DNA from: Microbotryum violaceum
Lineage: Eukaryota
Assembly (NCBI GenBank): GCA_001244265.2
Contig: CDLV01000010.1
Span: 620,001-684,000, forward strand
Length of the DNA stretch: 64,000 nucleotides
Direction of reading: 5' to 3'
Shown in pieces: positions 5,625-58,155 of this stretch. The stretch's first letter is position 1. Each line of letters starts with the position of its first letter. The notes beneath the pieces were generated by a model. That model saw only the letters and a program-made list of their open reading frames with translations, made no database searches and was not told the DNA's origin. Both the position numbers and the translations under genes were made by a program.

Positions 5625-7193
5625 TGATGCTACGTTTCGGAGCAAGCTGAGAATCGGGAGTGTACCAAAAGTGCGAAGTCAGTACGACCGACCCGAATTC
5701 CCACGCTTGCCCGGCGGGAGAGAAAGCGATCTGGGTAGTTACGAATTCGTAGACAACCTTTTAGGGTTGACAACGTGGTGAACTGTCCGGATCTAGATTA
5801 GCAGGCGGCGATCTTCTCACTGGCCGACCGGCTCTGAAAGTGTTTGAGCCGTGGACTGCTTTTGGCGGATGTGAAACAGGGGACTCTGGGGGAAAACGAA
5901 ACGGCGGGAAACAGCTGGCGCAGTCGGTCGGAGAATCGGGGATGCACCATGATGCCGCGGGGCGATCGACCGGCATTAAGCCCCAAACTCACAAGCGTTT
6001 GTAAAGTGGTACGTCAAAACCGAAGCAGGAGCTCGTGCTCTTTCATGGTGTATGAAGCATTCAGCCTAGGTGCCCAGAGTAAGCAGAGATGTACGAAAGT
6101 GATGCCCTCAGAGCGCTGGGTTGATGTCGAACCTGCAGGCCGGTCGGTTCCTCGACGGATTCTGGAAGCATGCACAGCGTTTTCCGGGCTCGCGAATTGA
6201 CCTGTAGGAACCCGCTCAAACAGAAGCCGGTCCGACCACCCGGTCTTAAAGTGTGTATTCAATCCTATCATGAATTGAGGTGTGTCTTATAGAAGTTTCA
6301 AATGACTCCGAGCTCTGGAATATTTGCTCGAACCCATGGGATTGCCCAAGAAAGTAGCACCGCGAAGAAGGTAAAGGTAATAGGTGTTTGGAAACGAGAC
6401 GCTCGGTGTTTCACATTCCTTCCACCCGGACCAAAAGCCAATCAGTGGGCTGAAGCTAGGGGTAACTGAAACTTGGTAAGCAGGTCAGCTAGCCACCGGA
6501 CGCCCACTTCCGAGGCGACCCTAGCATCTCGCCCGCCGACCCGGGCGCTTCCTGCACCTCCGCGCGCAGGCTTGGCAGGGAGAATGAGATCCGAATCTCG
6601 CCAGGGCTCTCGAGGGTCATGTATCAGTCAATCCCGGGAGAGCCGGTACGAATAGTTGAGAAGGTGCTCCCACGATCGGTCGTGCTTGATGGATCCGTTC
6701 AATCGGCTAGGCTCAGAGCAAGGTCCGATGATGATGGCATTACTGCCAAGATCCAAGGCCGTAGAGTTATCTTATGCCCCATGATGACGCTGAGGACATC
6801 GGTGGGAGTGAAGGTGGACGATCCGTCGTACCACGCTTCTGAGAGTCAATTCTGGTCGCAGTTCTCGAGCGCGTGCTTCAGGGACTCAAAGTATGTTTAT
6901 CACGAGCTCTGGGTCTTCAGAGCCACGCATAATCCCATTGATGATGTCTACGCCATGCACGGGGGAGGCTCAACCCGTTGCGCGCGCCCGCCTTCAACCC
7001 AGGATAGGCTGGACATAATGCCTCCTGTTGGAATCAACAATGATCCCGAAATGAACAACAAAAGATGAGAACGGCTTGTCTCTGCTCACCCCGCGAGTGC
7101 ATCTGGCTCGCTGATTACCTGGCCTTTGAGCGTTTGGAACCGATGCTGTTCCGAGATCGACTTTTTACCACGCCGATCGATTGCAGCTGCCGT

Positions 7194-31500: not shown

Positions 31501-34500
31501 TTGATCTCGAGCGTGCTGCGGATGTCGGCAAAAAGAGGATCGTCGGCCAATCCGTTCTCGCGCATAAAGGTGAAGAGTGCCGGTGCCGAGGTGGCCGCGC
31601 GGAAGCGCACTCGGAAGTCCTCGTCGGCCAGCAGGGAGGGGATGATTGCCGTCGGGAGAATGACCAAACCGTCACCCGAGCGCTTGGCGTACCCTCCGTG
31701 ATCCCACTGCAGTTGCGTCCGGTCGAGAGAGAGGTACAGGTCGAGGAACGCAAGGAAGCGCAAACGAACGCGCCACGAGGATAGAACTTGTCGGTAGAGG
31801 TTGGCCGTGTACCAGGAACAAAGCATCCGAGCGCGGGATCCGAAGGCTTCGGCCGCGTCGCCGTCCTCAGCAAGGACCCATGTCGGTGCGGTGCATTCCA
31901 GGAACTTGAGCCCGAGGAGAGCGAACCTTTCGTCTCGCGCGAACTGGTAGTTGGACAAGAGCTCTTCGCCGAGATACTGCAAAACTCGTTCCGCGTGCGA
32001 TAGACTCAAATCGATCACACCGACACGAACAGCGTTGAGCACCTGTTCGGCAATGGTGATAGCGTCCTCGCCCGGGGCATTGACGATCGCCTCAATCAGG
32101 CTGTTGACACGCACCGATCCTGCACTGCCAGTCATGGCCATCACGGCCGATACGAGGCCTTTAATACATCCTCGCATACAGGCCCTCCCAAAACGGCTTG
32201 TACTTGATGGACCAAGAATCGCCTTGGCTTGCTTCGCGATCCTGACCTCGCCAAAATCGTCCTCACGCTGCGACTGTGCGATGCCCCGAAGACGTTGGGA
32301 AGCCTGCGTTGCCGATAGGGCCTGAGTCGAGTGCTGAGTGGCTTGACTCGAGCTGCCTTCCGTGAAGGATACGATCCCAGTCACCAAAATGTGAAAGACA
32401 GACGCGATCTCGCCAAGCGCGACGCGGACCATCTCGTTGGACCACATGTGGCGCAAAAACCGAAAATCGAACGAAGTAAAGTCGATATCGAGAGACTCCG
32501 CCGATCGGGAAGGGGTGAGGTGTGAAGCGATACCACTCGCAGGACCGGGATCCAGCAGTACCCGATATTCAATTGCGGGATCTTCGTCGAGCGGGATGAA
32601 CAGACCGTCGAGCGCAGTAAGCAAAAGCGATCGCTCATGTGGGCGCCACTTGGCGTTGCCAAGCGAAGGCGCGAGATGCTCGAGGATCCTCGTCGAAGAT
32701 CGAACCGTCGCCCTGTTGGGGGCGATCGACTTTGATAGCGAAAAAAGCGATTCGACATTCAGAGCGAATGTCGCGAAATCGAGGTACCGCCACGCGAGAT
32801 CAAAGTCCATGGAATCCCAAAACTGGCTCGACCCTTGCTCCGTCTCGGTCTGAATATGGGCCATCGATTTCTGCAGCCATGAAGATATGCGACGCTCCGT
32901 TCTGAGCTCCTGAACGTCCAAAACCACGCCACCGTCACACGATGCCGACACATCTGATGGAATCTGCACGCGTCTCTTCGTTGATTCCTCGGTCGAGATG
33001 GCAACTTTGGCACCGATGAAGTCTCTGATGACGGCCGTCTCGCAGTGCTCGATGACCATGGATGCGATGGCACAATCGGGTATTACAACCTCGCTGTCAA
33101 GACTCGGAAACTCGCCGATGTCGCATAGACGGGCAATGAGCGATACGAGTGCCGATAGCGAGAAGGGATCCGAGCGTAGCCTTGATTGACCAAAGGTGTG
33201 ACCGCGAGAAAATCCTTCGAACGGCTTCCATGCGGTCACGAGCCACGTTAGAACCCTTTCAGGTAACCGCAGTCGATAAAGTCGAGTGTCGGTCGTCGAA
33301 AGGGCTAGACACCACCTCAGAAAGGCGCAGACGGCATCGCTTGGAAATCTTGGTCCGATGACGTCAAGGTCTTTGGTAAAGCTCTCGAGAGTTGTCGAGA
33401 CGAGCATTCGTGCCACGCGGTCATATGCCAGTAATGTGTTGCACAGATGTGCCGAACAGCGACCCACGTCAGCCGAAGAAAGATTTCTGATGGCAAGTGA
33501 CCAAACTGAATCCCAGAGAGTCGGTGCTGCCGACTTGCGCTTGACAGGCGACGCGTGGGCTGGCATCTGCTCGATCGGAGCATCGATCGCTGCGGCGGCG
33601 GCGAGTGCAAGGATCGCCCACGTGCGCACATCGCTGTCTTTATGCGATACGAGGGAGCCTAATGCCGTGACCATGCGTCGATGCGTGCACGCGTTCAACA
33701 GCCCCGGATGCTTTTCGATGAAGAACATCGCCAACTGTGCTCGAAAGGCGAGGGCAGCGGAAGGCTCGCGGACGTCTTCGAGTGAGTCGATCAAGCAGCT
33801 CAGTGGCTCTTCCACCTAGTGAATTTCATAAACAAAAGTGTCAGTGTGGCACACGTTTGAAACTTTTTTTCGTACTAGTGAGTCGACTGACCCGTCGTCG
33901 TTTACCGTTGCGACTCGGAGTGGCCACAGGTTGGTCAGAGCCGGCAGCATCCACGTCGAAGATCTTGGCCAACGCATCAGCACCAAGCTCGAGCACCGCC
34001 CAGGCGTTGGCATCCTTATCCGTGAAGCCATGTCCGAGTTGAATAGTGCGGGCTTTGAATGGCCTCGCCGGCGAGGATGTATCGAGCGAAAGGTCACCCA
34101 CCGCGAGTCGGAGGTGGTCAACATTGAGCCGAAAGAGTTCACGAGTCCGAATGGTCGGTTCCGTCAGCACGGACTCATACAGCGCCGTGACGCGAGATTG
34201 GTGCGATCCTCGATCGCCGCGAAGGACAAAGGGCAACAGTTGCCTCAAGGCCATGACAACTTGTTCCTTGACCGTATTGTTCTTCGTTGCCCAGAGGGAC
34301 AAGACTGGGCACCATAGCTTTACGCCCAGACGGCCCATCATCAACTGGTCATTGAGATCCAGCTCGGCGAATGCCCGATTGAGCGCGATGAGGGCTGATT
34401 CATGCGCCGTCGTCTCGTGCGGATACTGACGGAACAGACGAGCGAATTTGACGAAAATAACCTGGGCATAAAGGAGAAAGGGAGCCGACCTCGACCGGAA

Positions 34501-35259
34501 CAAGGTCTCAATACATCCAACAAGTTCGATCTCTAGCGCGGTAGCGGCCTTTCGAGTCGAGGTCGGTACCGATGACCCCGTGTCGTCGTCATCGTCATAA
34601 TCGTTCACGTCCACGACCATCCGTCCGCCGCCGATTCCTCGCCGCCGATGTCGAACATGACTCGATCCTAGGAGATGATCGTCACTCTCTTCGCCATCGT
34701 CATCGAAGCCGTCTCCAGTGACCCCAATCGCCGCTTCGTCGGTTAACTTTTGACCAGGACGCACCTTGTCGCCGAGCACCACGGAGAAGCAAATCATAAC
34801 GACTTCGGCCCATTTATCCTTGCCGAGATGCTCAACGTGGGCCTGGTTTCCCAGCAGCAATTTCAGCGCCTTGGAGTACGCCAACATGAAGCTCTGCTGT
34901 TGGCCTTGGGGCACAGACGCAATCATCTGCGTTAAATGCTCTAGCAAACTCTTGACGCCCTTCTTGGGCAGCTTGGTCGAGACTTTGTCGGCGAACCAAG
35001 CGACGAGCATGGCCGCATCCTCGAGACGTTTTTCGCCGATGGACGTGGGTTTGACGACAACAACGTTGTGTTCCTTGATGACGAGGCCGAACAAGCGTTG
35101 CAAGCTGTCGGTCCACGAGTGGTTCGGGTGGGCATCAAGCGCGTTGAAGTTGGTGCGCGAGCCGAGGTAGCCGCGCACGAGCGAGACGCCCTCGACGCGA
35201 TCCTTGATCTTGTCCGACTCGATCAAAGTCAAGATGTTGTTCCACTCTCGAGTACTCAT
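25566..35259 (-). CDS. TEL1: ATM/Tel1 PIKK serine/threonine kinase, multi-exon
   Basis: N-terminal TAN motif (IESDKIKDR) and a FAT region. Kinase motifs [36 protein letters not shown] and [37 protein letters not shown]. Confidence 0.96.
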
Positions 35260-38200
35260 GGCTGGTAGAATCCACGGATCGCACGCGGCGCTGATGGGAA
35301 GATACACGTTATTTTGAGTCAGTGGAGGGCCTCGACGTGTGGGGGTGGGTAGAACTACGCAGGCGGTTCTGACCAACTCCGCAGGTATAGGGACAACAAT
35401 ACCATGACATTTACCGATTGAAGAGGTCTCTTAATGGAAAGAGTGCGTCTAGAGTCGATTCGGTGCGGTTGAAGAGAGGCGGACACGGTGGGCACCGCTG
35501 CTGGGATGAATCGTCGCAGACCGGCAGTTCGCACGTCAGCTCTGGACCTAGGTAGTGCACACTACACGTCCTGCTGCTGTAGGGGAGCTGACCGACGGGT
35601 ACTTGTCGACGGAATTGGCCTTGCCGAGCTGCGACGCCCCAGTGCCACCGCGCCCTCAGCTCGAGCAGCGATCAGATGTGACTGTCGACGAGCGAGATGT
35701 CAAAGCGAGCCAAGTGTGGTCGTCTGGAGGGGGAAGTCGTGCTGACGAGAGTGACTGGTCGCTGCGAATACGCAGGTTGGCCCGGGTCCAAGATTTTCAA
35801 TCCGTGCCATACACTGCCGCCCTCTAAGCCGAGCTCCCGCTTCAGCTTCAATCACGACGAGTGTCGAAGGAAAGACAACGCCCAACAAAAGGTGCCAAGT
35901 CGAGGCAGCTCGGGGTCAGCAAACTCTGCCGACCAGCGTGTTCTTGTGCTCGCTCGGATTCATCATACATAACCTACGAAGCACCAGGCTCCACGTAGGT
36001 GCGTCTCGGCTCTCTCGGCTCACAATTGCTCACGCCCCAATAAAACACCAGAACTTGACTCGATATTACATATGCACACAGGAACACTCGCTAATACCAA
36101 AACTTGGGGGCCAAGCACGTTGTACACTCACACGTCACACGACCGAAGCTGGGAAGGTGCAACGAAAGAACACCAACAAACCACACGTCGTCAGCCGCAT
36201 GATCAAGCAACAATGCCGTAGAACCCCCAACACATTGCCCCCCAAGATTCGGAACCAGGTTTCAGTCAATGGCCCTCTTGCGAGGGAAGGTAGCGAGATA
36301 ATGTTTCTGCAACAACCGTACGAGACACAACGCCGCATCCCATAATGACAACACTTCTTACACCCTTAGTCTCGGGGGCTGTACTCCACCACGCAAATCG
36401 TCGTCGATGTAAGAAATCGATTTCGGCAGGAACCAAGACGATGCACTGCTCAACCGACGCCCCTCTGCTCTCCCATCCCCAGCCACACCGAGCTCAGTTC
36501 CTTCGCCCGCGTGAATGCTCTCCCGGGCCACCGGCCACGTCCCTCGCTCGTTCCTTAACAAAAGAGTCAAGTAGTAGATGCAAAGAACCTGTCCTTTGAC
36601 TCGAGAGGACACACGAACGACAGAGAAGGAAGCATGCGAGCCCTGAAAGGACCGAAGACGTTGCGAACACAGGGGGGCAAGAAAAACAGCGCGTGTCCAT
36701 GAGCGGCTTCGCCTAGTCTCGTTCCTGCGCCGACAACGACCGCATCGTGGGACAGCGCATCCAAGCAGGCTGGGTCAGAGCATCGTCGAGACACGTCGTG
36801 GCATCCCTGGTCTAAAGCCAAATGCCTCGAAGCATCATGTGTGGTTCCTTGTCTTGGGGGGTAAGGGTAGGGGGAGGGCTCACGTGCCGCCCACTCGAGG
36901 ACACACATGGGCACTGACCAAGACATAAAACTTACCATGATTTGGGAATCCACATCCAGAAACCGCCACCAGGAATGCGCTATGGACGGGTGCGGCAGCG
37001 ACTTGGAGGGAACAGCCCGCGACATTGTCGGTGTGGGCAGAAGAAGGCCAACCCGTGGCTGCGAAGCTTCAGAGCTTCAGCGGCTTCAAATCGACTGGTG
37101 CAGACAGATCGGCAGGTCCATTTAGCCAGCCAAATGAACTCGTGCGCGCACGCGCGATAAGGCAGCTTTTCTGTTTTTTTGGCCCGGGGGGAGCTCGGTA
37201 GAGGGATGGTGTACCATTGCTCTTCCCTCCTCGCCCACCCCGGCACGGTGCACCTCTCTGGCCGTCCCACGAGCCTTGAAGCGAAAGCTTACTAGCTAAT
37301 CGATGTTAGCGTTAGCTTTATAGACAATTCCAATCTTCCTATACCAATGTTCCCAAGAGTCGAATTCGGAACCGAAATGCGACATAGCTGTTGTACCCAA
37401 TACCGCCTGCTGACGAGATGGAGGATACAAACCAAGTATGCACAGGTAAGACAGCTGCTGTATTGACCTTCTGCCCCCCCCCCCCCTCCCTCTAATTTTC
37501 TGCTTCTCTTCACTCACTACTTACTTCCCCCCCCCCACCTTTTTTTAAAAAAAAAATCGAATTCAACAACAGCAAAATTAAAGCATTACCTAACTAAAAA
37601 CCTTGGAAAAGTCGGAGAGAATGCAGTTGAGCACACTGGCTAGGTCAGCTTCGGAGCTTCGGATCTCGAAGATGGGAGTTTCCTTTTGCCGAGTCATATT
37701 GGGCCCTACTGGGTCTTAAGGGTATTAATGGTATTGGGAAAAAAAGCTGACTGGTCGCTTGCTGTTATTGAAGTGTAATAGATATAAAAAAATGTGGCGC
37801 ACGGTTCGCTCCCGCACTTTGACCTTGGCCCAAGCACATCGACGCGCCGACGCACACTGGGTTACTAAATGCTCCTCAAATTGAGTCGGACCAGGTTGAT
37901 GATTAGTCCCTCTTCTTGTTCATGTTCCTGTTTTTTTTCTTCTGCAAGGATCGATTGGGAGCGATCTTACACCTTGTCCAAACACGACCTCATCCCTGTC
38001 TCTCGCGCCTCGCATCTTAACCAATCGGATCATTTTGTGATAAGTTGTTCCGCATCTCTATAGTTGACAAAGCACGCAAGGGGACCACACCGGTGACATT
38101 TCCGGTAGGACATTTCAGGATTTGGGTGTGTAGCTCTTCATTCTTTCATCACCTGATTGTGTCCTATTCTCTGAAGTGCGTCTTGACTTCTGACAAACCG

Positions 38201-39854: not shown

Positions 39855-41508
39855 TTACTTGTTGTTCTCGAGGGAGTAGACGGGAAGCTGTCCGTTTTCC
39901 GCCTTGGGATCATCCTGGTGAGTACCTTGCAGGGTCGGAGCAGCACTCTGGGTCGAGGAACTCGGCTCGGGCAACGGCGACTTGACATCCCCCGACGACT
40001 CGAACGCGGATCCGCCGAGATCTTTGAGGTGGACCGGACGGGTGTTCGCATTCGATGGGGCTCGAGGACGCAGTTGGCCAGTGATCGGTCCACCGCTACC
40101 GACGATCGGGGTCCCCGTCTCGGCGACAGTCGGGCCGAGCGGTACCCCCTCGATCTCCGTGATAGGATCCGTCGGCAACGGCGAGGCCGGGGGTGTGTAG
40201 TGGGGGCCGAGATCGACAGGCGTAGGCGATAGATTGATGCGCGTCGCACTAGAGGTGGACGCACTGCGCACGATCGCCGGCTGTTGGAAGGCGCCGCCAG
40301 AAGAAGAGGACGAGGTCGTCGCACCGGCAACGGCCATGAACGACTGCTCCGAGATCGACGGAGGGGAATGGGGCACACGTCGGGCAGGTACTGGCGGCGG
40401 TGTAATCTGAGCCGACAAAGTTGCGGGGGACTCGGGATCGACCGCGTTGAGCTGGTCGCCATGAGTCTCATGGAGTGATCCAGTTTCCTGGCGACCCAGC
40501 CATCGCGAGCCACCGGAGCTGAGCGTCGGCAGTGGAATCAAGGGGCGATCAGGACTCCAAGCTTTGAGAGCCTCGCCCAACTCGCCCTTGATTTGAGCTG
40601 TTCGTTCCTGGCCCTGATAATGGGGACCGAAGCCACTTTCGAACTCGCGTAAAAGTAGAGCGCCGTATCCCGCGATCATGGCCTGTTTTTCGCCGAGCTC
40701 CTTCTGTGCCTCGAACAAGAGGCCAAACGTCGCATGCAGTTGAGTCCGCTTAAGGCGTTCGGCTTCGAGTTCCTTGCTGTGGAGCTCTAGCTCGACCGCA
40801 TACAGGTCGGCTTGCAGTCTCGCGGCCTCCTCGGTGCTCCTCGCGGATGTCTTGTCCTTGATCGCCGCGAGTCGACGCTGAAGATTCTCTTGTTCGCGGC
40901 GCTTGGGCACGATCTCGTTGTTTTGGTGGTTGCGCAACTCCTTGAGGGGGATCCGGGCCTGTTCGACCCTCAGGGCGTGTGCAGCATTGAGCTCGGACGA
41001 TGCGAGCAGGACGTAGGCGAGTCGATCCGAGATGTCCACCACGTCGGCAGCCTGCTCAAAGTTTTCGTCTTGGCCCCAAAGATACTGTTGAAAAGGAAAC
41101 GTAGGGAAAATCCAAGACGCGCATGTCAGGGGCACAGCGGGTACAGTCGGACGATTCTCAGCCCCAAGTTGAAAACGCTTACAATGTGCTTCGAGTATAG
41201 CGCCAGCTCTCTTGCGAGTGCTTGTTCGTCCAAAACCACTCCGCGCTGTGCTTTGATGGCCATGTGCAGTCTCACCGTCTCGGCATGCTGGTTGATGGAC
41301 GCCGCTTGCTGTCGTCTGTTGCAGGGGGAAAACGAAATGCCGCGCGTCAGATCCACGTCAGCTTCCGTCGGCAATAAGCGCTCTCGCATCAAACCCACAA
41401 AGTGTGCTGGAATGATCCAACCCCAGTCGGTATCTGCGATGTCAGATTTCTGATGGAGCCAAGGAGCGCTGCTCCACGTGAGGTTCCTTTAGTGTCGTCT
41501 GCGATCAT
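39855..41508 (-). CDS. Pil1/Lsp1-like (eisosome BAR-domain) protein with Pro/Ser-rich tail, 3 exons
   Basis: YLWGQDE...DVVDISDRLAYVL, LKELRN..., LKR..L...F.A..ELGEKQAMIAGYG match the Pil1-family pattern. Upstream exons at 41508-~41399 and ~41323-41183. Confidence 0.8.
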
Positions 41509-42422
41509 GATCGAGGTTCGGGCCTAGTCACAGTGACTCGTGAGTAGCCAGGTGGGAATGGGAGGAAGCGACAGAACGAGTGGTCTGAGAGCAACGATAG
41601 AAACGAAGCGATCTCAGCATCCAAGCCAGCAGAAGTCCTCGCGCGTGTCTTGTGCTCGTCTCAACTCTTCACCAACTCACTGACGAAGTGACTCGACCAC
41701 GGTGCTGGGCTGGAGGGAAACAGATCGAGGTCGTACGCCGCCGCCGAGCGCCCCCGCCCCCGCACCGCCTCACAGCCGCTAGCTGGCCGGTTGCCAAAGG
41801 CGGCCAACGGGCGCGCCGAGCGAGTCGAAAGGCGAGTGCGGTGCGAATCACTCCCTCTTGCTAGAACCAACTATTCAGTCTCGCAACATCGCCTGTTGCT
41901 CGCTCGAAACTCCATTTTTTCTTGCTTTCCCGCCCGCCTCCCCGGTTTGCCTCCCCTTGCTTGCGCTGCCCCGCCGGTTTCTTCGCGGGGCCGTGTCGTG
42001 AGGAAATTCGCCCCCAAGCCCAAACCAAAGCCTTTTATTATACATTATTCAAGAGAGATCGGCACAAACGCCCAAACGTCGTTCAGTCGGAGACTGTCCG
42101 TCGTATTACTTGCAAAGCCGACACGAGACGCTCGACGAGCGACCAAGCGCCAGCCGCTCTACTGCCGCTAGGACCCGGGAAAGCTCAGCCCAATGTGCGT
42201 CTCGAAAAACAACGATATCAGGCTGATTTGTACATCGGGATAAGGTGTCTGAGGGGTCGATTTGTACCTATTCTGAGTCGTCCATTGGAAGATTTCGGGG
42301 AACAAATTTGTGGGAATTGCCCAAAAATCGCTCTCCAACAGCCAGGAATATGGAAAATCGCGGTCGCGTTTTGACGTTTTGACAGCCGGCAGCTCGGACA
42401 GGCCCGACCGATCGTCGGCTAT

Positions 42423-42718
42423 TTTTATGGTGCTGTGAATGTGAGGGCTGCAGATATCCAGTGGCTTCGACCTTACCTAAGTCTAAACCCTCTTTTCAAG
42501 AAACATTGGTTTTGTGTAGATAATCGAATATGTGAAATCAGGCTTGATACAACAAAAATCGGGACTCTCTGTCTTTTCTCTCTTCTCGGTTGTGGCTATT
42601 CTTTAAAACTATATAGGGTTGGTGGTTGGGGCGAGTCCCATTTTGTGGTTCTGTGAATGTAGTGCTGCATAGATCCAGTGGCTCTGACTTTGCACAAGTC
42701 TAAACCCCTGTTCAAGAA
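42423..42718. repeat. Diverged ~80-bp direct repeat pair (42423-42502 and 42641-42718)
   Basis: TTTT.TGGT.CTGTGAATGT...CTGCA..ATCCAGTGGCT...AAGTCTAAACCC...TTCAAGAA occurs twice. Confidence 0.8.
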
Positions 42719-45299
42719 GGATCAATAGCCGGAGGCATACCACCAATTCTCGAAAATCGTAACTTATGTCGAATGATGCGGGATCTCGAACACTGCGTCG
42801 TCTAGGGACAGGTGAATTCGTGATTCTGGAGGGACTGTTGTAGATGAAAAGTTGTCCTCTTGTCCCTCAACAAAGGCACACACGGAAGTGCGCAGAATGT
42901 AGGATGATCGCGACCGCAGTGGCACAAGGTGAGGATGGTCAGGGGCTATCAGGGGCGTCTAATGGCCTTTCGCCCACTTCCAGCGCCTTTCTGTATTCTT
43001 GCGGATGGCGTCTTGGTGCCAATGGGTTTTCACGCCCAATCTCCGATCCCTGTCGGGCTGACGCTGATCCCTTGAACTTGCAAGAGGCTTGACCGCAGAA
43101 CCAACAGTGCCGCATTACTTTCCCGGTGACTGCGCTCACTGAACTGCCACTGATAGCAATCCCTGCACACGGACCATTGTTGCTTGTGTCCATCGCCCCG
43201 GATGGGCGGATGAATGATGTTTGAGGATTGGACGCTTCGACCTCTGCATCCGTGAGCATCCCCGAGACCGGAGTTTTGTGGTCGAGCAACGGCTTGTCGG
43301 GCGGCGGGCTGACATTGCGACCGCGGGAGGGGTCGGTGATCATCGCTTGGGTCGCTTTGACGTCGTTCTCGGCCATATTCAATGTGGCTAAATACTCAGT
43401 CTGCCATCGCAGAGTCGTAGAACGCTTGAAGGACTTGAGAGTTTGGCACGTGTCCGCAATTGCCCGTTGGATCTTCCCAGTCTCCAAAATCGAGATAAAC
43501 GTAAGTTGAGTTCGAGTCGCGCGATGGGTTCCGCGACTCGATTGCCGATCGATAGTCCAACTCGAGCCAGTCACCAGCTGCACGATGAGCTGTGACCAAG
43601 ACGTGCGCGTATTGCTTCGATCCGAAGCCGCGTTGGAGATTTGCCCGCATGCTATTCCAGACGACTGAGGTGGTTGCGCAGCGATGTGAAAGGTGGAAAG
43701 GGAACATCAACCCAAGCGAGGATGACACTTGATTGAGCACCTCGGGCGACCAAGACCGATACTTCTTGTTAAATTTCTTTTTGTTGCATCGATATGAGAC
43801 GCCGATGAGGAACACTGACTTGTTGAGGTCGCATGCCCGGCGAGGCCGATTGATAAAGCCGTCTCGCCGTAAGACGCCTTTTTTCAGAGTCGATTCCGTT
43901 TGCTGGAAGCTATCGCACTTCAGTCCGATTCCCGCCGGAACATATTCTGGTTGACCCATCAATAGCAGCGGATCCCAATAAACATGACGGATCGAAGATC
44001 TGGATCTTATTGCGAGAGCGTCGAGTGTCGTAATATCGAGCGCACACAGTTTTGGTCGGAAGCCAACCATGCAGCAATTGGTGAAACGGCTTGGTGGAAT
44101 GATTCATCCCGGATCCATTAGCGCTTTTTATCATCTCGCGTTTGGAATTGTAGAGCTCTGTAAGTCATTTGGGATGTTCCCACCGGCCTTCGCCCTTGGC
44201 GGAGACGACCCCGTCGTCCTCATCGCCATCGAACGGATCACCCTCCATCACATAAATCTCATCGGCATCGATGATTAGTTCGCCGAGAGAAGTAGTCCGT
44301 GGGCGTGTGAGTCGGGGTTTGACAATCGATTCACTCGGGGTTGACTTTGGAATTGAGTCAACAGACTCGGGGCCGCTGGGGACTGCCGAGCTCGCCGATT
44401 CCGGCATCGAGGGCAGACTGGGGTCGGTCGAGTGCGAGGCACCGGATCCGGAAGGCACGGCGAACGAAGGGTTTGAAGCTGAAGACGAACTTGAACTGGA
44501 TGCTTGCGCAAAGCTGAAAGTTGTCTTTCTCCGGAGTTGACAGCCATTGATATGCGTAAGACTTCGTGCGGGACACAGGTCTACGCAACTCACGGTGTAC
44601 GTTTTTGCAGGGGGAAACTGCGAGGGTGGAATATTAAAATAACCCCGGGTCAGCCCGAAATGGAACAGGATGGAAGGTTCGTCATCACACTAGGCTGCCA
44701 CACATCGAGCTTGAACAACTGACCAGCATCCTCTGAGTCTGCTCGTCCAAGACGATCTGGCGCTGTGGGGCTCCACTTCCAGCCCGATTCGTTTCGCCTC
44801 CTCTCGTTACCTTGCTTGTTCTTCATCTTGTCGTTTCTTCGCCGCTTTCTCTTCTGCTATCGCTTCTGCTTGTTTTGCCTGGGTTTTGACCGTCTTCTCC
44901 TTCTCCTTGTCTGTCTTTTTCGGACGACCCTGAGCTCGTTTCGGTGCAGGTGCGGATGCAGGTGGAGGATTGGGTGGTCGGCCGAGTGGCTTTTTGCCTA
45001 GCTGGTTGACCGCACTTGGTGCCGAATCCTGCCTATCAATTGAAATCTCGTTAATGCGACGCTTGTCGGCCCGAGATGGGGTTGCACTGTCGGGAGTGTC
45101 GCGACTGTAACCGATCCCGCTGCCCTGGCTTGATGTTGAGGCTGGCGGAGAAGAGGTAGCGGCAGCGACAGAGCCGGTTCGGTTCCAGTTTACAGAATGA
45201 GAGTGCCAGCTGCGTGTTGTTGCATGCAATGCATTGCACAAAAGGCAAGAAATACAAGAACGGACGACACGCTCCAGCTCGCGCCGCGTGCCAGCCAGC

Positions 45300-45610
45300 C
45301 TGCGCCAACTCAGGCCCATTGCGCTAACCTCCGATTGCGCTAACCTCGAGGGATTTGGCGCAGAGAGGTTAGCGCAACCGAGTGCGCTAACCGCCCCACC
45401 TTTCCGGGGCGGTACCGGTGCTGGGGGGTGCGCTTGCGCTAACTCGCGCGCGCCAAACTGAGCTGGCGCAATTGAGTAGCGCACTTGAGTTGGCGCAGTC
45501 GAGCGCCCGAGTTAGCGCACTTGAGTTAGCCCACTGCGCGCGCGTGAGTTGGCGCAGCGTCTTGAGTTGGCGCACTTGAGTTAGCGCACTGAGTCGGCGC
45601 AATCAGGCGC
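45300..45610. repeat. Array of ~11-bp TGCGC(C/T)AACTC / GAGTT(G/A)GCGCA motifs in both orientations
   Basis: The left half has mostly TGCGCYAACY copies and the right half GAGTTRGCGCA copies. Confidence 0.8.
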
Positions 45611-46207
45611 GCCGCGTACCCCCTTGTCTTCATGCTGCAACGTGCCATATCCTACGATGCAACTGCTGTCACGCTCTTTTCGGAAACGAAGCGCCGATAA
45701 CACGGACGACAGAATGAAGCAGCTGGCAAAGCTATCTGGGCCAAGGCTGCAACAAGCAAAGGTGAGTTACTACGGACATGCGCCAGTCCTGGCGCCGGGG
45801 CTGGAGCTGATTACTACCTCTCTATATATAAAAAGGTGAGTTAAGGAATGTACCTAAAATCGCTGTTTTGAACTAGGTTGGCCGCCTGTGGTGGATGTAC
45901 CAGCATACTGTTGTGTCTGCCGCACCTGCCTGTGGTGTCCATGTTCCGATCAGAAGTCATGTACAAGCGCTGTGGTGACTTTTGTATTTTCCGCGCCGTT
46001 CCAACGAAGCTACAGCGCTCCCAGTATTTTCCTTCTTTTTTTCGCTCACATAAAACAATGCTTCCACTCATATTGCATTTAATGAACCGCAAGCGCGTGG
46101 CTTTGCATGATATTGCTTCTACAGCAGAGCTCTGCCTGACGTGCGAGGCGAGGGCTGGCGTTTGTCACGTGATGCGGTGCGCCGGCGGTGGAGTGTCATT
46201 CCGGCAG

Positions 46208-46284
46208 TCGACCAGCGGCATTAGGGGCTGAACAACCAATTTGCCCGTATGGCATTCGACCAGCGGCATTAGGGGCTGAACAAC
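46208..46284. repeat. Perfect 29-bp direct repeat, period 48 bp
   Basis: TCGACCAGCGGCATTAGGGGCTGAACAAC at 46208-46236 and 46256-46284. Confidence 0.9.
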
Positions 46285-48419
46285 AAATCAAACCACGTAA
46301 ATAATCCTGCGCCACTCCCTCGAACCTTTCCTTTCTCCCTCCCACTCTCATCCAATTTTAGTGACACTCATTCAAGAACAAACCCTCGCTGCTATGTCCC
46401 GGTCCCAAGGTCGCCAGGGACTCAGGGAGGGCCATCGCAACCTCGCCAAGTCTTGGGCGCGAGGGTAGCGCCGTACCATGGGCTACCATGGGCCTGCTCG
46501 AGCGCCCGCTGCTGGGCGCCCCTCGGCTCGACCCTCCTCTTCGTCCCGCTCCGATCAACAGAATCAGCCCCCCGGCGCGTCATGACAACAATTTAACCGA
46601 TCTTGGCATTGCGACACGTATACGAGCCCGCCGTGCAGCTGTGCAGAACGGACAGCGTGGTCAGCGCGATGGCCAACTCGACGCTGGGCTCGCCCCACCA
46701 CCACCTCCTCCGCAAAGGCGAGTGCGCCGGGCTCGAATCGCGCTCAAACCCCTCAAGCCCCACGTTTTCGCAGGGCAAGGTGCAGCTACCTCCCCCTCCC
46801 CAGCCCAATCTCGAGTATCGGCGGCTTCTTGAAGGCTCGATAGCGGTCAGTTGCTCCGTCCAACAACATTCGTCTGCAGTAGACCCACATGCTGAACTGT
46901 TCTACCCACCCACACAGAAGCGGTTGCATTCCGCGAGAATGCCCGGTCGTACAACAACGCGTTGTCCTTTACTTCGCTCGCTGCCCACTGGGACCAAACC
47001 CAAGTGGGCACTCTAGGACCTCCCGTGTTTCGCGTGTTCGGCCGCCTCTATCATTGACTCGGTGCCCTGGTCCCTGCCGTGAATCAACGCCCAGCCTTTG
47101 CCCAGACATGGCTGATCGACTCGGCCGAGGCCACCGACACTCGACTTGAACCCGACGGCGCAGACAGTCACATGCAACGATCTACTTTGACCAAGCTCGA
47201 GTCCATGTTGCGTACCAAGAATCACTTTGTGAGGGAGTTCGCATCGGCCAAACCTCGCGCAGGTTGGGATACGGCCAAAGAGTGGATCCTGCGCCTCTGC
47301 CTCCCGCCAGGCCGGGACCGACGCACCCACAACCCTCCTACATCGAGCACGGAAATGGCGATGTTTATCTGCGATTCCGACACCAACACGGGAGATCGTG
47401 GACCGCAAGACCTTATTCTCCAGGTGCACGGTGATCGATGTCCCGATGGTCGGCCCAAGTACCAAATCGTTAGCTCGCTCCATCCGTCCGCGATGCCTCT
47501 CCGTTACCCACTACTTTTTCCTGCAGGGGAAGATGGCTTCCACCCCAACATTCCTCTTTGCGGGTTCCACCAAGCCAGGCCGCCAATCGCTAGAAACTGA
47601 GAGCAGATCGACGATGGTGTCCAATTGCGCGAGGTACTTGCCGGTCTCGGTTTGGATGACGAAGACGAACAGGAGGACGAAGACCGCGACAATGAGGATG
47701 AAGATGGCGAGAAAGGGACGAAGAGGATGGTGATAGCGAACGTACGCGTCTTCGGCTCTTTCTCTGATGTTCCATTCTGCCGAAGGCGCAAGCACAGACT
47801 GACATTGAACTTTTGAACACCTAGGACGAAGGTCAAGTAAAGGGGTCGAGGTGGCGAGTCTCGCGTTCACAATTCTTTGCGCACTACTTGCCAAACGCGA
47901 CGAGCACTTCTCAATCCCGCATTGCACCCAACGTCCCTTCCTGGATTTCGTGAATTACGGATGTGCTCCCAAGTCAAGACCGATTGACTCAACATATCCG
48001 GTTACATCAAGAGAACCTACGCCTCACCACGACCCAAGGCATCAACGGCTTGACCCCGAACCAAATCGCGACATCACGCAGCGATACCGGGATGCGGTGG
48101 CGTGCGTTGTCAAACATGGAAAGCCTCCGCTGCTCATCACGATGACGTACGACCCCGACTCACCGGAAATCAAGGCTGCACTGGGGCCGTTAAAGCATGC
48201 AACCCTCCGGATCTCATTGCACGAGTGTTTGAAGCCAAGTCCGGCAACAAGCGACATGCAGGCTGTTTCGGCAATGAATGTAAGATGAATGGATTTTGTT
48301 TCTTTGCTGTATTTCGTATTGTGTTTTCTTAACCTCTGCGCTGATATCATGTAGACTGTTCGATTATCCTGCTATTTTTTGAATATCATCCTCCCGTTAA
48401 TTTAACGGGTTCCCACTGG
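46208..48419 (+). mobile_element. Degenerate Helitron (Rep region remnants, helicase absent, 3' end intact; 5' end uncertain)
   Basis: GKVQLPP, PAFAQ.W.ID, N.FVREF, HNPPT..EMA, HPSAMPLRYPLLFP.GEDGFH and RYRDA.A.V...GKPPLLITMT.DP..PEI. 3' palindrome CCCGTTAA-T-TTAACGGG (48393-48409) followed by CTGG (48416-48419) and then T. Confidence 0.88.
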
Positions 48420-50328
48420 TGTATGTATCTCAAACTATCCCCTTTCACTAGTCCCTTCCTCAGACGATACCGCTGTGCGGATTTTAATCGATTTCTGGCA
48501 TTTCTTTGACCGGATCTATGTGTCCAAAAAACATGGCGCTGCCAAAGCCTTTGCTCGCGCCTTCTCCGATGCGGTTTTCATCCCGAATGCGGATGATCGA
48601 CTCCTGATAAAGGCTCGCCTAGCAAAACTCGGAATGACGTGGGAAGAAGCGGTCCGTTCGCCGGTATGGAATAAGAAGCTTTGGAGACGCGTTCGTCGAT
48701 GGATCCCTCCGCCAGGCATTCTCGAGCCTTTGGTCCGGGAGGTCTTTGAGAAGCTCGGTCGATGCGAAGTCGAAGCAACCTCTTTTCAACAAAGCGGCGC
48801 ACGAGGCAGCGAAGAGAGGTCTTGAGGCGATTCGGAAAGGCCAAGTATCGGATCCAGTTGGCATCGAGCTGTACACCGACCTTGGGCCTTGCGGAGGGCC
48901 AGATGGAAAGGCGGATGACGGTGTCCGTTTATATTCCTGCCAGCGCGACACCAACAGTCTCGAAGGAGGCATCCATCGGAACCTTCGCCAACGGTTTCCA
49001 AAGTCTGGTGTTCTCCGTGCCATGTCAATGCGTGCACGGCTGACTACGTGCTAGTGCACAATCTCACGGTCAGTCCAACTCCACCATCGCAATTCGAAGA
49101 AGCGGCAACCATTCTCACCCATTATCCCTTGTATTCGCAAGTTGGGACGTTCAATCGTACCGGAAAACCATTTGTGGGGCACTACGACCTCTGGCTCACT
49201 GTGGAATTACATCGTCTGAGGCGCAAAACCCCGGCATTTTTCCCACGGCACTCAGCCACCGTGTCAGATATAGTCAACCCGCTGGTCTACACCCCATCCA
49301 CCGAGACATTCGGCATCGTGCTTGTTGTTCAGTCGCCAACAGCGCAAATGCGCTTTTTGATCGAGCCCTATCAAGTCGAGCGCGGGACTCTGCGTTTGGA
49401 GCCCGTCAAGTGGTCGCCGTGGAACTTGCTGCAAAACAATACGCCGGCGATACAGCATATGCAAAGCCGGCTGCCAACCGATCGCAAGCTTCGCCACGAC
49501 TGGCTAGCGGAACGTCAGGGTACTCGATTCGCTGTATTGTATGTCCATACACCCAGCGAACGAGCGCTATACAGATATATCTCGAGCAAGGTACGACTGG
49601 GAGCTCCTCAAAATCTTCGGATATTCGAGATTACCGAGCTTTGAAACAAGTATGCCAACGGAATAGACATTTTTACAAAGTATGTCACGTCTGTGTCGCA
49701 CTGAATGGTAACGCTGAGCTGAAGCGCAATTATCACACAGACGCCAGAGCACATCAATACATGGGCACCGAGATGGTCATCGCTGGCAAATGCTCAAGCC
49801 ACAATGAACATGGGTGGGAACGACGTCAGAGTGATTCAAGCTTTGTTTGCCGACCCCTCCCGCGGTCGTGATGTTAGCATGCTAGCGGCTAAGCCATTAC
49901 TCGGTCACAAACCGCCTGTCTTGGGGAGGCTTACAGAAGTAGAAGTCGATTTCTCGGATCCTTCAACGTCATCCATCCGCGCCTTTGTTGCAACTGCCTC
50001 GAGCGCTGGTTCGAGCGCGGACTTGGGCACGAGCAGCGCTTTGACGCGCGCGGGTACCACAAAAGGGGCAAGCCACTGTCGATTATGTGGACAAACTACT
50101 TGTCGACGCAAGGGGTCAAAACTAAGCGATGACGGATCGGTGACTGAGTGTGACGGGGCGTGCTTGGACTGCGGGAAGCCTTTCGGGCTGACAGACGAGA
50201 TGGATCCGAACGACCCACAATCACGAAGGTTCTGTAGAGGACTGACAAGGGCTGAGATGAATGGCCGAGCTTGGCAACAAAAGAAGTGTCACAACTATGT
50301 AGCTGTATATAATACCTGCTTAATATGA
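48420..50328 (+). mobile_element. Dada-like DDE transposase pseudogene (copy B: catalytic core plus Cys-rich C-terminus, N-terminus missing)
   Basis: RILIDFWHFF (DxxH), HG...FARAFSDA.F, WRRVRRWIPPP, PLFN, GQVSDP.G..LY, YSCQRDTNSLEGGIH, HNL|VGTFNRTG..F.GHYD.WL, LAERQGTRFAVL.VHT and HCRLCGQTTC..C..C..C. Disrupted by a frameshift (~48770) and a premature stop (~49052). Confidence 0.75.
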
Positions 50329-50359
50329 AGTATGTTGTCAAAATGACTTGTTCCGTACC

Positions 50360-50465
50360 ACTTCCTCTCTTTCTCCGTTTTCACCTCCCCTCCCTCTTCT
50401 TCTTTCTCCAAGTTCTTTTTCTTCCCCTCCATCTTCTCCTTTCCCCCTTTTTTCTCTTTCCCTCT

Positions 50466-50502
<37 letters not shown>

Positions 50503-50626
50503 CTTCCCCTCTTTTTCTATGAGGTATGAGTATGAGGCGCCGGGTATGAGACGCCGGAGCTAACACGAGTTTCGCGCAAAAAAAAAAAAAAAAAAAAAAA
50601 AAGAGAGAAGAAAAAAACAATAAAAA
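50360..50626. repeat. Polypyrimidine tract, T35 (50468-50502) and A25 (50578-50602) runs
   Basis: Directly visible; the 75-bp spacer contains repeated TATGAG. Confidence 0.9.
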
Positions 50627-50913
50627 ATGACAGCACAGCACAGTCATGCCGCAAGGTCGTCCGTCATGACCCATGGCATGGCATGACTTCCCTCCAATCC
50701 AGGGGACAGAAAAAGCTCTCTTGAATCTCATTTGTAGCCATCAGCTCTTCTGCACCCACCTAGCTGAGCCTGCTGCTGTTACTGCTGCAGCGCTGCTTGA
50801 CCCTGAGGCCTGAGGCCCGCACCCTCCCGCACGCAGCGCCCAGGCAACCGCCTCGAGTTCGGCCTGGATTTGCCTCTTTTCCTCCTGCCACTCTCTTCCC
50901 CTCGCCTCTCCTA

Positions 50914-52122
50914 ATGAACATGAACGGATCAACATCTGGCTCGACCGACGATTTGTTCAGCTTGGTCTTGAATTCCGATACGGCTTCTTCTTTTGGCGCT
51001 GCAACTGCTGGCGATGCACCTCTTTCAGTACAACAACATATCGAGCGCGTGGTGGGGCGGGCGCCCGACTCTTCTTAGGAACCTCAACCTCAAGCTCCAC
51101 TCACTCCAGCTCAACAGCTCGAAATGATGAACATGATGATAACGCTCCGATGGTAACGCTCCAGAAAATGAACAACAATTCGCTGCCATGGCTGCCAAAA
51201 TCGAAGCTCGCCGAGCCGATCTACGCTCAAATGAACAACGCGCGATGGCTTTCGGGCAGACGGATGCTAGGGTCGCGGCTGACAAACGAGGTCCAGCAGC
51301 AAATCTGGAGCTGATCAACTCTCACAACCTGGGTCTAGAGGAAACAGGTCAGTCTCGTCGATTCACGTTGGCCGTTTGCCGTCCCTTGTTCCGTGTCCCA
51401 TTGCTGATCTCTCGGCTCTCGCTTTCGTAGACTAGATCCGGGACAATATGTCTCGGGCTTACGTTAACGACTGGTCAAATCCCTTCAAATCCGGCTCGAC
51501 TCTTTCCACATCCTCAAGGGATCGAGCTCAACTCTTTTGCAGTCGTCGAGTCGCGCCTCGACCACCCGTCATCCAGCTCCCGCCGCGCCATTGCCCGACC
51601 CGGCTTTTAGCCGATCGACCTCGAGCGACGCAAGGACGACGCGATCATCTCCGGTACATGCGAATGATTGCAATGGGGGTGGTGGGCTCTTGACACCAGC
51701 GGCACGCTCGGCGCGTGGCCGGCTGAGTGGCGCTCAGCTAGGGCTCAAGAAATCCGCTACGCACGCCGCCTCCCCCTCCCCCGCCGAAGCGATGCAATTG
51801 ATGCCCACTAGTAAGGAGGAAAGCAGGAAGGGCAAGGGCGTGCAAATATTCGAAAGTGGGGAGCAAGCAGAAGAAGAGGAAGGCTGGGGGAAGAGCGCAA
51901 GTGTTGATCTGCCGGGACGACGACGACAAAGCGAGCGAGGATGATTCACCTTCGTCGGGACTTTCGGAATCAAATGCGGAGAGGCGTCAAGTTCAGGACA
52001 TCCTTGCGGGGAAGCAAAGGATTCAGGAGATGATTTTAAGTTCGGATCCGAAGAGGGATCAGAGGAGAAAACGTTACCTCCGCCACCGAACTTTGGTCCG
52101 AAGCGACAGCCAAGGCAGGTGA
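50914..52122 (+). pseudogene. Disrupted spliced ORF of unknown function, probably TE-associated
   Basis: Protein-like segments (MNMNGST.., MAAKIEARRADLRSNEQ.., RRQVQDILAGKQRIQEMI) are broken by stops and frameshifts. One clear GTCAGT..CTGAT..TAG intron (~51348-51430). Confidence 0.35.
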
Positions 52123-52177
52123 TTGAGCAGATGCAATCACTTGCCGACTCAAGGGATCATGCTACCGTTAGCTCTTC

Positions 52178-52317
52178 GACCGAACCTCCAGAAGATTTTA
52201 CTCGCTTTGCTGCCCCGCCTTGTCGAACGCGCCTTCGGAGGGGTTTTGACCGAACCTCCAGAAGATCTCACTCGCTTTGCTGCCCCGCCTTGTCGAACGC
52301 GCCTTCGGAGGGGTTTT
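52178..52317. repeat. 70-bp tandem duplication (2 copies, 2 mismatches)
   Basis: GACCGAACCTCCAGAAGAT..ACTCGCTTTGCTGCCCCGCCTTGTCGAACGCGCCTTCGGAGGGGTTTT at 52178 and 52248. Confidence 0.95.
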
Positions 52318-52929
52318 CCCCTCGACGCTCGGAACGAACCTCTCGTCCCCCACGGCCACGAGACTAACCATGCGTTGTAGACTAGCGAGTTCGGATTGAA
52401 ACTATAGACAATAACTCGTAACATGTACCAAATCTTGACTCTTGTGCGAGACAGAGACGATCGGCGCATCGGCGACACTGCGCGGCTGTCACTTTGTCAC
52501 TCGGACGAGGCCCAGCTTGGACGATCAATTCCAGCTAGCGAGCGATAGGGTATGATTTGAAAAGCTGTCACACTGCAAGGTTCTCTTCCGACCATCGAAC
52601 AGCCACCAAATATTTCCGCCGCGCCTCCTCAATCTCAAGAGCATTAGATTGGAAACCTTGAACTCGGATCTCTTCGAATAGCGCTGTCTTGGCTTCTTCG
52701 ACCAGCAGTTCGTCGCCGACTTCCGATCCTAGGACATGCTGATCGCCGTCTTGAAGGTAGGTGAGAACAGGCAGCAGCGTAGCCATCTCGGGCGATGGGA
52801 ACTGAAGGGGGACCGAAGCAGACGTAAAGCGCCGTCGTCAACTCTTAGCCACTCGACGACTCCCGAGGGTTGAACCACCCCAGAGTTGGAGAATTTTTTT
52901 CTTTCTTTCTCGCGGGCAGTGTTGTGTGA

Positions 52930-54610
52930 TTTTTTATTTTTTTTTCCTGCGCGCGCGCGATTCTCGTGTCCCCAAAGGCGCCTCATATACTTCATCAACA
53001 GCATGATTGTATTAATACCTAGAAATCTTCGGAAAGTCGGAGGGAATGCTGTTTCGTACACTGGCAGAAGCCAGTAGTGTAGGACTCATTGACCCTGCAT
53101 CAGGATCAACCATGCCTACTAAAACCCCCGTGGGTGGCTTACAGAGACGCAAGGCGACCCTTGGACTCCTGAATAGACCCCTCAAACTCCGTTTCGGTGA
53201 TCGGTTCCAAAAGATCCGACGAGAATCGACGACGGCGACAGAGCTTCCAGATCGAGTGAAAGAAGAGGACTCGTAGTTCGACAAGTCGACGTTCCGGGCG
53301 AGACACGACCGGGCATACAAAGTCCACAAAGACTGGGTGGGGGGTCGGGGACAGAGCAGACCAGAGGCGCCGGGCAATTGGGCAGCCGACCGCGAGGTGA
53401 ACCAGGCACTCGGGTGCTTCCGAGAGGCACATCACACAGGAGGTAGATCGATTGTTGGGGTGCGGGCTGGTTGGGGAGGCGAATTGGCTTCCCGGATGGA
53501 GGGACCCCAGGGAGAGAAGGTGGCTGGTATCCTCGGCGTCCGAGCGAACCCGGCGAACCTTGCGCAAAGCCTTCCACCAAGCGTTCCAGCGTTGCTCAGG
53601 CAGATCGAATACCTTCTGGTGTCCCTTGGGGAAGATAGGGGGGAAGATGAAGACTTGGTGGCGTTTGGACGCGTTCACAAACGAAGACGGGGTCATCACC
53701 TCGCCATCGGGCCCTCGAAAAAGCGTCGGGTTTACCGAGAGTTGTATTCCGTGGCCCGCTGGGAAATAGAGTACGTGCGTCGCCCATTGCTCTAGGTTCT
53801 GGCTCTTGGAGAGTTCCGGGGGATTGAGCGTGGTCACCAACGCCCAGGCTTCGAAGTATCGGACCCAACGAGTAGGAAGAAGTTTTGTCGTCTTTCTCTC
53901 CGCATGGTCCCACTTTGGGGGAGGATGGCAAAAGTATGCCCACCAGATCCAGATCCAAGGGCGATGATGCTGGTTGGGGGCTGGTCTGGACAAAGTGAAA
54001 GGGGTTGGTTCGTTCGGTGCCTCCAGGCGGATGCGGATGTCGAAGAGGTGGCGTGTGAAGCAGCCGTCCGGGGCCCGGAGCTGGAAGACCCACTTCGCGT
54101 GATCGATCGCTAGACGCCGAGGCAGACCAATCAAGCCGAAGCCGCCGTGATCGAGAGGGGTGCAGAGGCGCGACCGGGAGACCCTCGGACGTCACTGAGT
54201 ACCATCCGAAGCTCGACCGTGAATGGCGAGCATGACGACCTCCTCGATCTCCTTGACAACGCTCTTGGGGGCGGGGAGGAATCGGCTGTAGTACAGGATC
54301 TTTGTGTAGCAGTAGATGTTGATGACCGAACACTTGGCTGCATATGGGAGATCGTACATCGGAATTGAGCGTATCCGAGCGACGGTCGAGGCCTTGACAT
54401 CTTCCCAGCCCGCATCCTCGGCGATCTCCACCCCGACCTGAATACCAAGGTAGCGAAACTGCGAATCGCTGAGACCCGAGGTCCCGAGATCTGGGGCGAC
54501 CGGCCGATCCCGAAAAGCTCCAAGGGGGTAGAGAAAAGATTTGGGGTTGCTGAGCTTGCTGGCACTTGCCCGTTCGTAAAGCTCGATCGCCCGCTTAAAG
54601 CTCGACCTGA
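52930..54610 (-). mobile_element. 5'-truncated non-LTR retrotransposon (L1/Tx1-like LINE), ORF2 C-terminal part
   Basis: Post-YADD segment IELYERASASKLSNPKS, then QFRYLGI, PLDHGGFGL and the zinc knuckle CVMC...E.LVHLAVGC..A..LW, followed by HSIWK.CRR. One in-frame TGA at ~54192. A-rich tail at ~52930-52946. Confidence 0.88.
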
Positions 54611-54801
54611 CACCTGCGATCTGGGCCGGCGCGCATTCAGATGTTACTAAGTTGCCATATGTTCAAGCCTCGGCCATTGGCGACGGGACACGGACATGTG
54701 TGATCTTCTAACTTCGCGTGTTTGATTTTAATAGTATGTAGAAAAATTAAACAAATGATCCCCTCCTCGGTTCATTCAGCCTGAATGTCGGCGTCTCCGA
54801 G

Positions 54802-58083: not shown

Positions 58084-58155
58084 CGGCTGGGCCAGGAGTC
58101 GAACCTGGGTCGCTTCCATTAATCGGAAAAGCTTTGACCTCTAAGCTATCCGGCC
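58084..58155 (-). tRNA. tRNA-like gene or pseudogene, 72 nt, TTA at the anticodon position
   Basis: GGCCGGA TA GCTT AGAGGTCA AAGC T TTTCC GATTAAT GGAAG CGAC CCAGG TTCGACT CCTGG CCCAGCC G. D and T stems are perfect, A and B boxes are present, and TTCTTCTTCTTTT follows. The acceptor stem has two mismatches and U33 is absent. Confidence 0.7.

Follow-up and report, generated by a model that had tools for sequence, protein, structure and literature searches.

The 64,000-nucleotide stretch of Microbotryum violaceum DNA analysed here (GenBank assembly GCA_001244265.2, contig CDLV01000010.1, positions 620,001 to 684,000 of the forward strand; hereafter the window, whose first letter is position 1) harbours two transposase remnants, copy A on the minus strand and copy B on the plus strand, arranged head-to-head at one locus. 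Both are very probably dead, non-autonomous deletion derivatives belonging to two sister subfamilies of an exonuclease-bearing fungal Dada-type cut-and-paste DNA transposon, and the locus itself is ordinary transposon debris. A preliminary description made from the letters alone had seen in them diverged copies of a multicopy, Dada-like transposase, and in these respects it was right. The Dada-type identity is borne out by the architecture and by the motif order and spacing of full-length relatives, the multicopy transposon nature by matches of the B-core protein at many contigs and by contig depth. A and B are diverged paralogs because the C-terminal block that they share shows 47% identity across 115 aa (E 7e-26) and 73% across 184 nt. 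The same description held that the two remnants are complementary and reconstruct, when stitched, a near-complete element of a poorly described, lineage-specific family; our analyses lead to another conclusion.

The parent protein was approached through a profile built on 13 full-length relatives (1511 positions). A profile search retrieves 1623 relatives at E<=0.001, the named long ones coming from Sporobolomyces, Rhodosporidiobolus, Rhodotorula, Arthromyces and Mycena. DUF6729 and PF01612 (3'-5' exonuclease) occur together in all 13 aligned long relatives, as do D2, DxxH and E, while D1 is present in 11 of them. Their motifs follow the order GRP motifs, CPxC..YRCxxC, DHS (D1), YTD (D2), exonuclease, DxxH, RGTNxxEGGVH and a Cys tail; the CCCC finger CPxC..YRCxxC of the consensus falls inside DUF6729, and the DEDDy exonuclease, identified by PF01612 and a WRN match, sits between the second D and DxxH, a piece of it being also present in the B-type protein P0002. 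A structure model of the relative P0028 (mean pLDDT 80.6) matches the WRN exonuclease with a Z of 26.6, and its best non-exonuclease match is the ISCth4 transposase (Z 10.7, 250 residues aligned, root-mean-square deviation 3.9); Foldseek returned matches to the exonuclease domain only. By comparison with these relatives, the parent of A and B would have encoded about 1500-1600 aa comprising AT-hooks, a CCCC finger (DUF6729), an RNase H-like D..D with an inserted WRN-like 3'-5' exonuclease after it, then DxxH, E and a tail rich in Cys.

On the 1511 positions of the profile, A covers 9-503 and B about 1023-1450. Positions 504-1022, which hold D1 (525), D2 (595) and the exonuclease (667-811), are absent from A, from B and from the remaining window; one third of the protein, including two of the three catalytic residues, is gone from both copies. 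Because both are without the same central third of the enzyme, A and B together cannot rebuild a near-complete element, and their apparent complementarity is a coincidence of two among several deletion patterns. Nor is there support for calling the family poorly described at the protein level or lineage-specific: besides the 1623 relatives mentioned above, Dada has been reported from four fungal phyla (PMC5751038; this and the other published sources are cited here from excerpts of their text), and the family is of an already-described kind, the Dada-1_LB/2_LB design published in 2013, of which A and B are decayed new copies. The Cys tail is not lineage-specific either, because distant fungal relatives carry a similar one: among 32 proteins of at least 1200 aa, many of them truncated predictions, it is complete in 7 and partial in 3. 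In B this multi-Cys finger is not literally CCHC. In the tree, Microbotryum groups with Sporidiobolales proteins at 94/95, a value under the strict mark; the tree holds 27 of 30 rows, P0022, P0030 and P0031 having been excluded by a motif filter, and the metagenome loci described below lie outside it.

The motifs first reported in A are all where they were said to be. Two AT-hook-like GRP motifs are present (GRPP at 44983-44972 and GRPKK at 44929-44915), the DUF6729-like Cys/His domain is confirmed by a PF20499 match (E 6e-7) in the open reading frame 43399-44103, whose N-terminal finger has retained two of four Cys, and the jump near 43410 is seen as DSAMAD (43399) followed by the NDVKAT block (43367), with HCWFCG at 43109. 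The same jump exists in P0023, and other contigs span A's junction with 6-8 differences. The second half of the C-terminal Cys finger was searched on A's side and not found; because A's coding sequence ends at about 43023, the segment 42423-43020 is not shown to be part of A. It contains an 80-bp direct repeat (42423-42502 and 42641-42718, 82% identical), depth in this region being about 7-fold, and 42423-42718 probably belongs to a different element that took the place of A's 3' end. Adjoining A's broken 3' side, 41760-42340 is a separate repeat whose depth in run X1 is about 35-45x that of single-copy DNA.

The catalytic core attributed to B is there only in part: DFWH (48490), PLFN (48779), SDPVG (48848) and RDTNSLEGGIH (48944) are present, and they represent just the DxxH and E half. 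B does bear the same C-terminal block as A (NDVRVI at 49819, HCRLCG at 50074), and it is decayed by frameshifts near 48759, 49010 and 49669 and by a stop at 49642. The introns proposed for the family are predicted in both copies as GT..AG introns agreeing with homolog predictions, that of A measuring 106 nt (44723-44618). Three parts of the locus had been overlooked: a Helitron at 45811-48419 in B, B's 5' part (45406-45810) and the terminal repeat arrays (45301-45588). All features are listed in the table.

Table. Features of copies A and B and of the inserted Helitron, in window coordinates
Positions	Strand	Feature	Remarks
43023..43388	-	A C-terminal block, ending after ENP, without second half of Cys finger	82-89% identity to P0006/P0022/P0027
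43389..43398	-	A deletion junction	D1, D2, exonuclease, DxxH and E removed; frame changed
43399..44240	-	A DUF6729 region, corresponding to Dada N-terminal zinc-finger region	profile positions 318-503
44372..45220	-	A N-terminal coding region of low complexity, in-frame stops; two AT-hook-like GRP motifs	match to M. saponariae P0027, P0006
45301..45397	-	A 5' end (putative)	subterminal GTTRGCGCA repeats; starts GGGGCGGT; predicted terminus
45398..45405	.	8-bp spacer between the two predicted 5' ends (ACCGCCCC / spacer / GGGGCGGT)	possible target duplication
45406..45715	+	B 5' end (putative), subterminal repeat array	deletion junction near 45712-45720
45716..45761	+	B exon immediately 5' of DxxH exon (EAAGKAIWAKAATSK)	65% over 20 aa to P0006
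45762..48451	+	B predicted 81-nt intron (45762-45810 plus 48420-48451), split by Helitron	GT..AG; Helitron-free form in contigs of X1, X5, X15
45811..48419	+	non-autonomous Helitron, 2609 bp, with Rep fragments	between A and T, no duplication; 3' hairpin and CTGG
48452..49720	+	B C-terminal half of catalytic region: DxxH 48490, E motif 48944 (G to D)	profile 1023-1334
49723..50328	+	B C-terminal block, complete multi-Cys finger	followed by pyrimidine tract; 3' terminus not fixed

How the two copies relate to the rest of the family is best seen in other Microbotryum sequences. A search with the B-core protein gave 22 matches, 21 of them from Microbotryum and 16 of these from different M. silenes-dioicae loci, with identities up to 100%; B is therefore multicopy. 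Twelve of the 16 M. silenes-dioicae matches contain B's 5' exon running directly into the DxxH exon. The replacement of RGTN by RDTN is common to 11 of the 22 close matches and is found in none of 143 other proteins, which indicates that B copies multiplied after decay. Measured roughly against the single-copy Pil1 flank, contig depth is about 9-15x for B (three runs) and about 1-2x per contig for A, or some 2-3 copies when summed, so that B would exist in roughly 10-15 copies sharing the decay mutation and A in about 2-3. Because other Microbotryum copies of both subfamilies show different deletions, A and B are two among several derivatives of independent origin: P0006 and P0007 are A-type with the core kept, P0027 is A-type with the core lost, P0025 has a B-type N-terminus, P0002 is B-type with the exonuclease piece mentioned above, and P0024 keeps the finger, D and D.

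The termini of the group were sought among 79 metagenome loci, 36 of which (near-full match plus flanks) were scanned for target-site duplications (TSDs). Six full-length elements of four families, 5.4-6.6 kb long and covering all profile landmarks, are bounded by GGC..GCC terminal inverted repeats (TIRs) of about 25 bp (17-22 of 25 positions identical) and flanked by TSDs of exactly 8 bp, all different; among control chimeras, an 8-bp match arose in 1 of 200. L040 and L060 possess both terminal motifs and no clean 8-bp duplication. Two 8-bp TSD rows of L019 were dropped as a tandem-repeat artefact, the 5-bp rows were taken as chance, and the 6-bp rows comprised three that were the same junctions shifted and four that were dropped. 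The preliminary description had suggested that the Cys finger may confer specificity for small-RNA targets. This is not supported, and nothing connects the finger with the choice of target. The same finger exists in distant relatives, and full-length relatives insert at unrelated 8-bp sites: none of the six rebuilt empty sites contains a tRNA, Rfam found no tRNA or snRNA on the loci of these six, ARAGORN at default detected no tRNA on the 79 loci (a lowered threshold gave noise and was discarded), and Rfam on 32 of the 79 returned a single tRNA, which in L027 is some 7 kb away from the transposase match. Full-length copies 99% identical at different sites, with TIRs and TSDs intact, were observed for two pairs, L021/L073 and L026/L028, which are recently active exonuclease-bearing elements. 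At two independent loci (L021:460-495 and L022:590-621), exactly 11 bp separate the start of the element from the end of a second, related TIR element.

At the window locus, the predicted 5' ends of A and B seem to meet head-to-head 8 bp apart. The motif GTTRGCGCA is found at 12 places in the window where 1.0 would be expected, 11 of these within 45301-45588 and mostly pointing inward for each copy, and B's 5' end agrees with the relatives' termini at 15 of 22 positions, a score equalled or bettered at 27 of 8610 GG-starting positions. At none of the ends in 41400-52500 did a search detect part of a tRNA or snRNA, the E-value scan giving only poly(A/T) and other chance matches, and thus the proposed insertion in such genes is not seen here either. 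Rfam and ARAGORN recognise a single tRNA-like gene in the window, at 58084-58155, 7.7 kb from B's last codon. This gene, on the minus strand, has the anticodon TTA, which would read a stop codon, and its adjoining 43 bp recur at 7026-7068; it may be a pseudogene, a short interspersed element (SINE) or a suppressor.

Several observations weigh against our interpretation of A and B and should be kept in mind. Contig depth is not a strict copy number, and an autonomous Microbotryum copy was not seen among the Microbotryum sequences examined, which did not include a whole assembly. Comparable 8-8-8 inverted repeats number 5 in the 64 kb, A's 5' end agrees with the relatives' termini at only 11 of 22 positions, and a second copy of the 8-bp spacer, a TIR or a 3' terminus sought at the far ends of A and B yielded nothing convincing. 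The relatives with TIRs and TSDs are just 27-44% identical to the query, and the link with Dada-1_LB is drawn from architecture, from the spacing of motifs and from a match to Fig. S1 judged by eye, not from alignment to Repbase Dada proteins.

The closeness of the two 5' ends invites the idea that A and B together make up a single functional unit, a transposase that is split or complements in trans and that moves as a composite: they share the subterminal motif and lie head-to-head 8 bp apart, A retaining the DNA-binding region and B a portion of the core. It is hardly credible in view of the two catalytic residues missing from both, of the frameshifts and stops in each, of depths that differ about fivefold, and of an X5 contig from another A-type copy that departs from the window sequence at 45377, where its alignment ends. 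Even less can be said for a host gene, several host genes or a domesticated transposase; these sequences are annotated as genes in Microbotryum assemblies, and their multicopy dispersal, variable deletions, frameshifts and nested Helitron leave that option next to no chance. A more attractive proposal, which we nonetheless judge unlikely, is that the Microbotryum family targets tRNA genes or a tRNA-like A-box and that its end arrays mimic the target, copies then inserting at each other's ends as well. The end motif contains TGGCGC/TAGCGC, two of its copies fit the generic A-box pattern against 0.055 expected, and 3 of 31 ends examined in relatives lie 6-11 bp from another terminal motif, one of these cases (L040) being possibly an assembly loop. 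Furthermore, 45464-45479 agrees with the Dada-tN target (PMC8869645) in 14 of 16 letters, a match that is post hoc and for which 0.38 per window are expected at 3 mismatches. The end motif is missing from 77 of the 79 related loci, and the ends in 41400-52500 are, as said, free of tRNA and snRNA pieces.

A bolder reading would make the exonuclease-bearing fungal "Dada" a TIR-bounded lineage with 8-bp TSDs and no RNA-gene targeting, which tends to insert directly beside the ends of related elements, the Microbotryum members having ends with A-box-like arrays near-identical to the fish Dada-tN target and using their own ends as target. We consider it a long shot; if true, recognition of the ends would be connected with how tRNA targeting arose or was lost in Dada. 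Somewhat less improbable, and still doubtful, is the suggestion that the exonuclease-bearing fungal group forms a MuDR/IS256-like TIR lineage of its own, for which "Dada" names only protein kin. All six elements with both ends defined combine TIRs of about 25 bp with non-specific duplications of 8 bp, the top transposase fold match is ISCth4, a member of the IS256 family, and the C-terminal finger departs from a literal CCHC. On the other side, Kojima and Jurka (PMC3706591) placed the Laccaria families in Dada on protein grounds, with which the motif spacing agrees; moreover, the matter is one of naming and leaves the nature of A and B unchanged.

Taking A and B as dead deletion derivatives, the following history may be sketched. 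Each derivative would have lost internal sequence in a separate event, probably when the gap left by excision was repaired, while keeping the end sequences, and their amplification, evident in the copies described above, may have depended on transposase supplied in trans. One copy would then have landed beside the other's 5' end, 8 bp apart if the predicted termini are right. Later, a Helitron entered B's intron and A's 3' end was lost. As for the enzyme, the TIRs of distant full-length relatives are short and their 8-bp duplications show no RNA-gene specificity; by analogy, the Microbotryum transposase may bind the repeated subterminal motif, cut at such TIRs and likewise produce 8-bp duplications with no preference for RNA genes.

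Helitrons are recognised by insertion between A and T without TSD, a 3' hairpin followed by CTRR, Rep motifs and a 5' TC. The insert in B shows the A|T insertion without TSD, the 3' hairpin, the CTRR end and Rep motifs, its 5' dinucleotide being TT and not TC; it also gives a Helitron_like_N match in Pfam (E 1e-5), below the curated cut-off. Contigs in X1, X5 and X15 skip it (joint 45810>48420), its depth exceeds that of the flank by more than 100x, and in each of three runs 12-19 contigs continue beyond 48420 with other flanks. It is a passenger and does not belong to the Dada elements. Microbotryum has abundant Helitrons, most of them non-autonomous (bioRxiv 10.1101/2022.08.03.502670), and the window insert resembles them in its A|T site, 3' hairpin and CTRR end; the excerpted text of that paper mentions "Dada" 0 times.

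The remainder of the window contains host genes, namely Pil1 (eisosome protein, 39855-41357) and a large PI3/PI4-kinase family gene (26552-35430), both on the minus strand, and ArgJ at 3774-5054. A remnant of a reverse transcriptase resembling those of long interspersed elements (53142-54662, minus strand) shares 94% identity with the segment of P0023 by which an A-type copy of M. silenes-dioicae is interrupted. A possible second TIR element spans 50531-52987, with an 11-bp perfect inverted repeat, more similarity inside both ends and A/T tracts; four open reading frames tested from it gave no Pfam match.

Beyond this locus, Pfam DUF6729 can be annotated as the N-terminal zinc-finger region of Dada-type transposases; a literature search on DUF6729 found no paper. 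The short TIRs and 8-bp non-specific duplications of the relatives supply what the published description lacked, and they show that not all of the group targets small-RNA genes. These TIRs and TSDs were not found in the literature searched, including the excerpts of PMC8869645, PMC5751038, PMC12477816 and PMC8290104, and Repbase entries or subscription papers may already state them. The intact relatives (L021/L073, L026/L028) suit a test of the role of the built-in exonuclease in transposition.

Three known systems deserve comparison. ISCth4 belongs to the IS256 family, and TIRs with 8-bp duplications fit the IS256/MuDR-like group. The modelled relative shares with ISCth4 (PDB 6xg8) the fold reported above and a D/CxxH motif; the two differ in that identity is 12%, without a sequence-level match, and that ISCth4 has no inserted exonuclease. 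With the target-specific Dada elements of fishes and Perkinsus (Dada-U6, -U1, -tRNA, -5S; PMC3706591, PMC8869645) the relatives have in common the order of transposase motifs at similar spacing, and the end motif of the window resembles the TGGCGC/TTGCGC target (PMC8869645). Those elements, in the excerpted descriptions, have no TIRs, 6-7-bp TSDs, positions inside small-RNA genes and no exonuclease, whereas the six relatives have TIRs, 8-bp TSDs and no RNA-gene insertion, and the window locus displays no such target features. The closest counterparts are Dada-1_LB and Dada-2_LB of Laccaria bicolor and Dada-1_ES of Ectocarpus, for which Kojima and Jurka (2013, PMC3706591) described the same domain and motif order; the excerpted text leaves the termini of the LB and ES families undefined, and the TSD is entered as "?" in the supplement rows of an Ectocarpus annotation (PMC12477816). 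From this design the window copies differ by being without D1, D2 and exonuclease, and the relatives by showing TIRs and 8-bp TSDs. The relatives share with it an N-terminal CCCC finger, D..D, a DEDDy exonuclease before DxxH, E, a C-terminal Cys finger and introns; they have a D1-D2 spacing of 70 aa against 68 and finger spacings of 5 and 33 against 5 and 35 in Dada-1_LB/2_LB, an exonuclease consensus that agrees by eye with Fig. S1, and an element length of 5.4-6.6 kb within the published 4.7-11 kb (PMC3706591).

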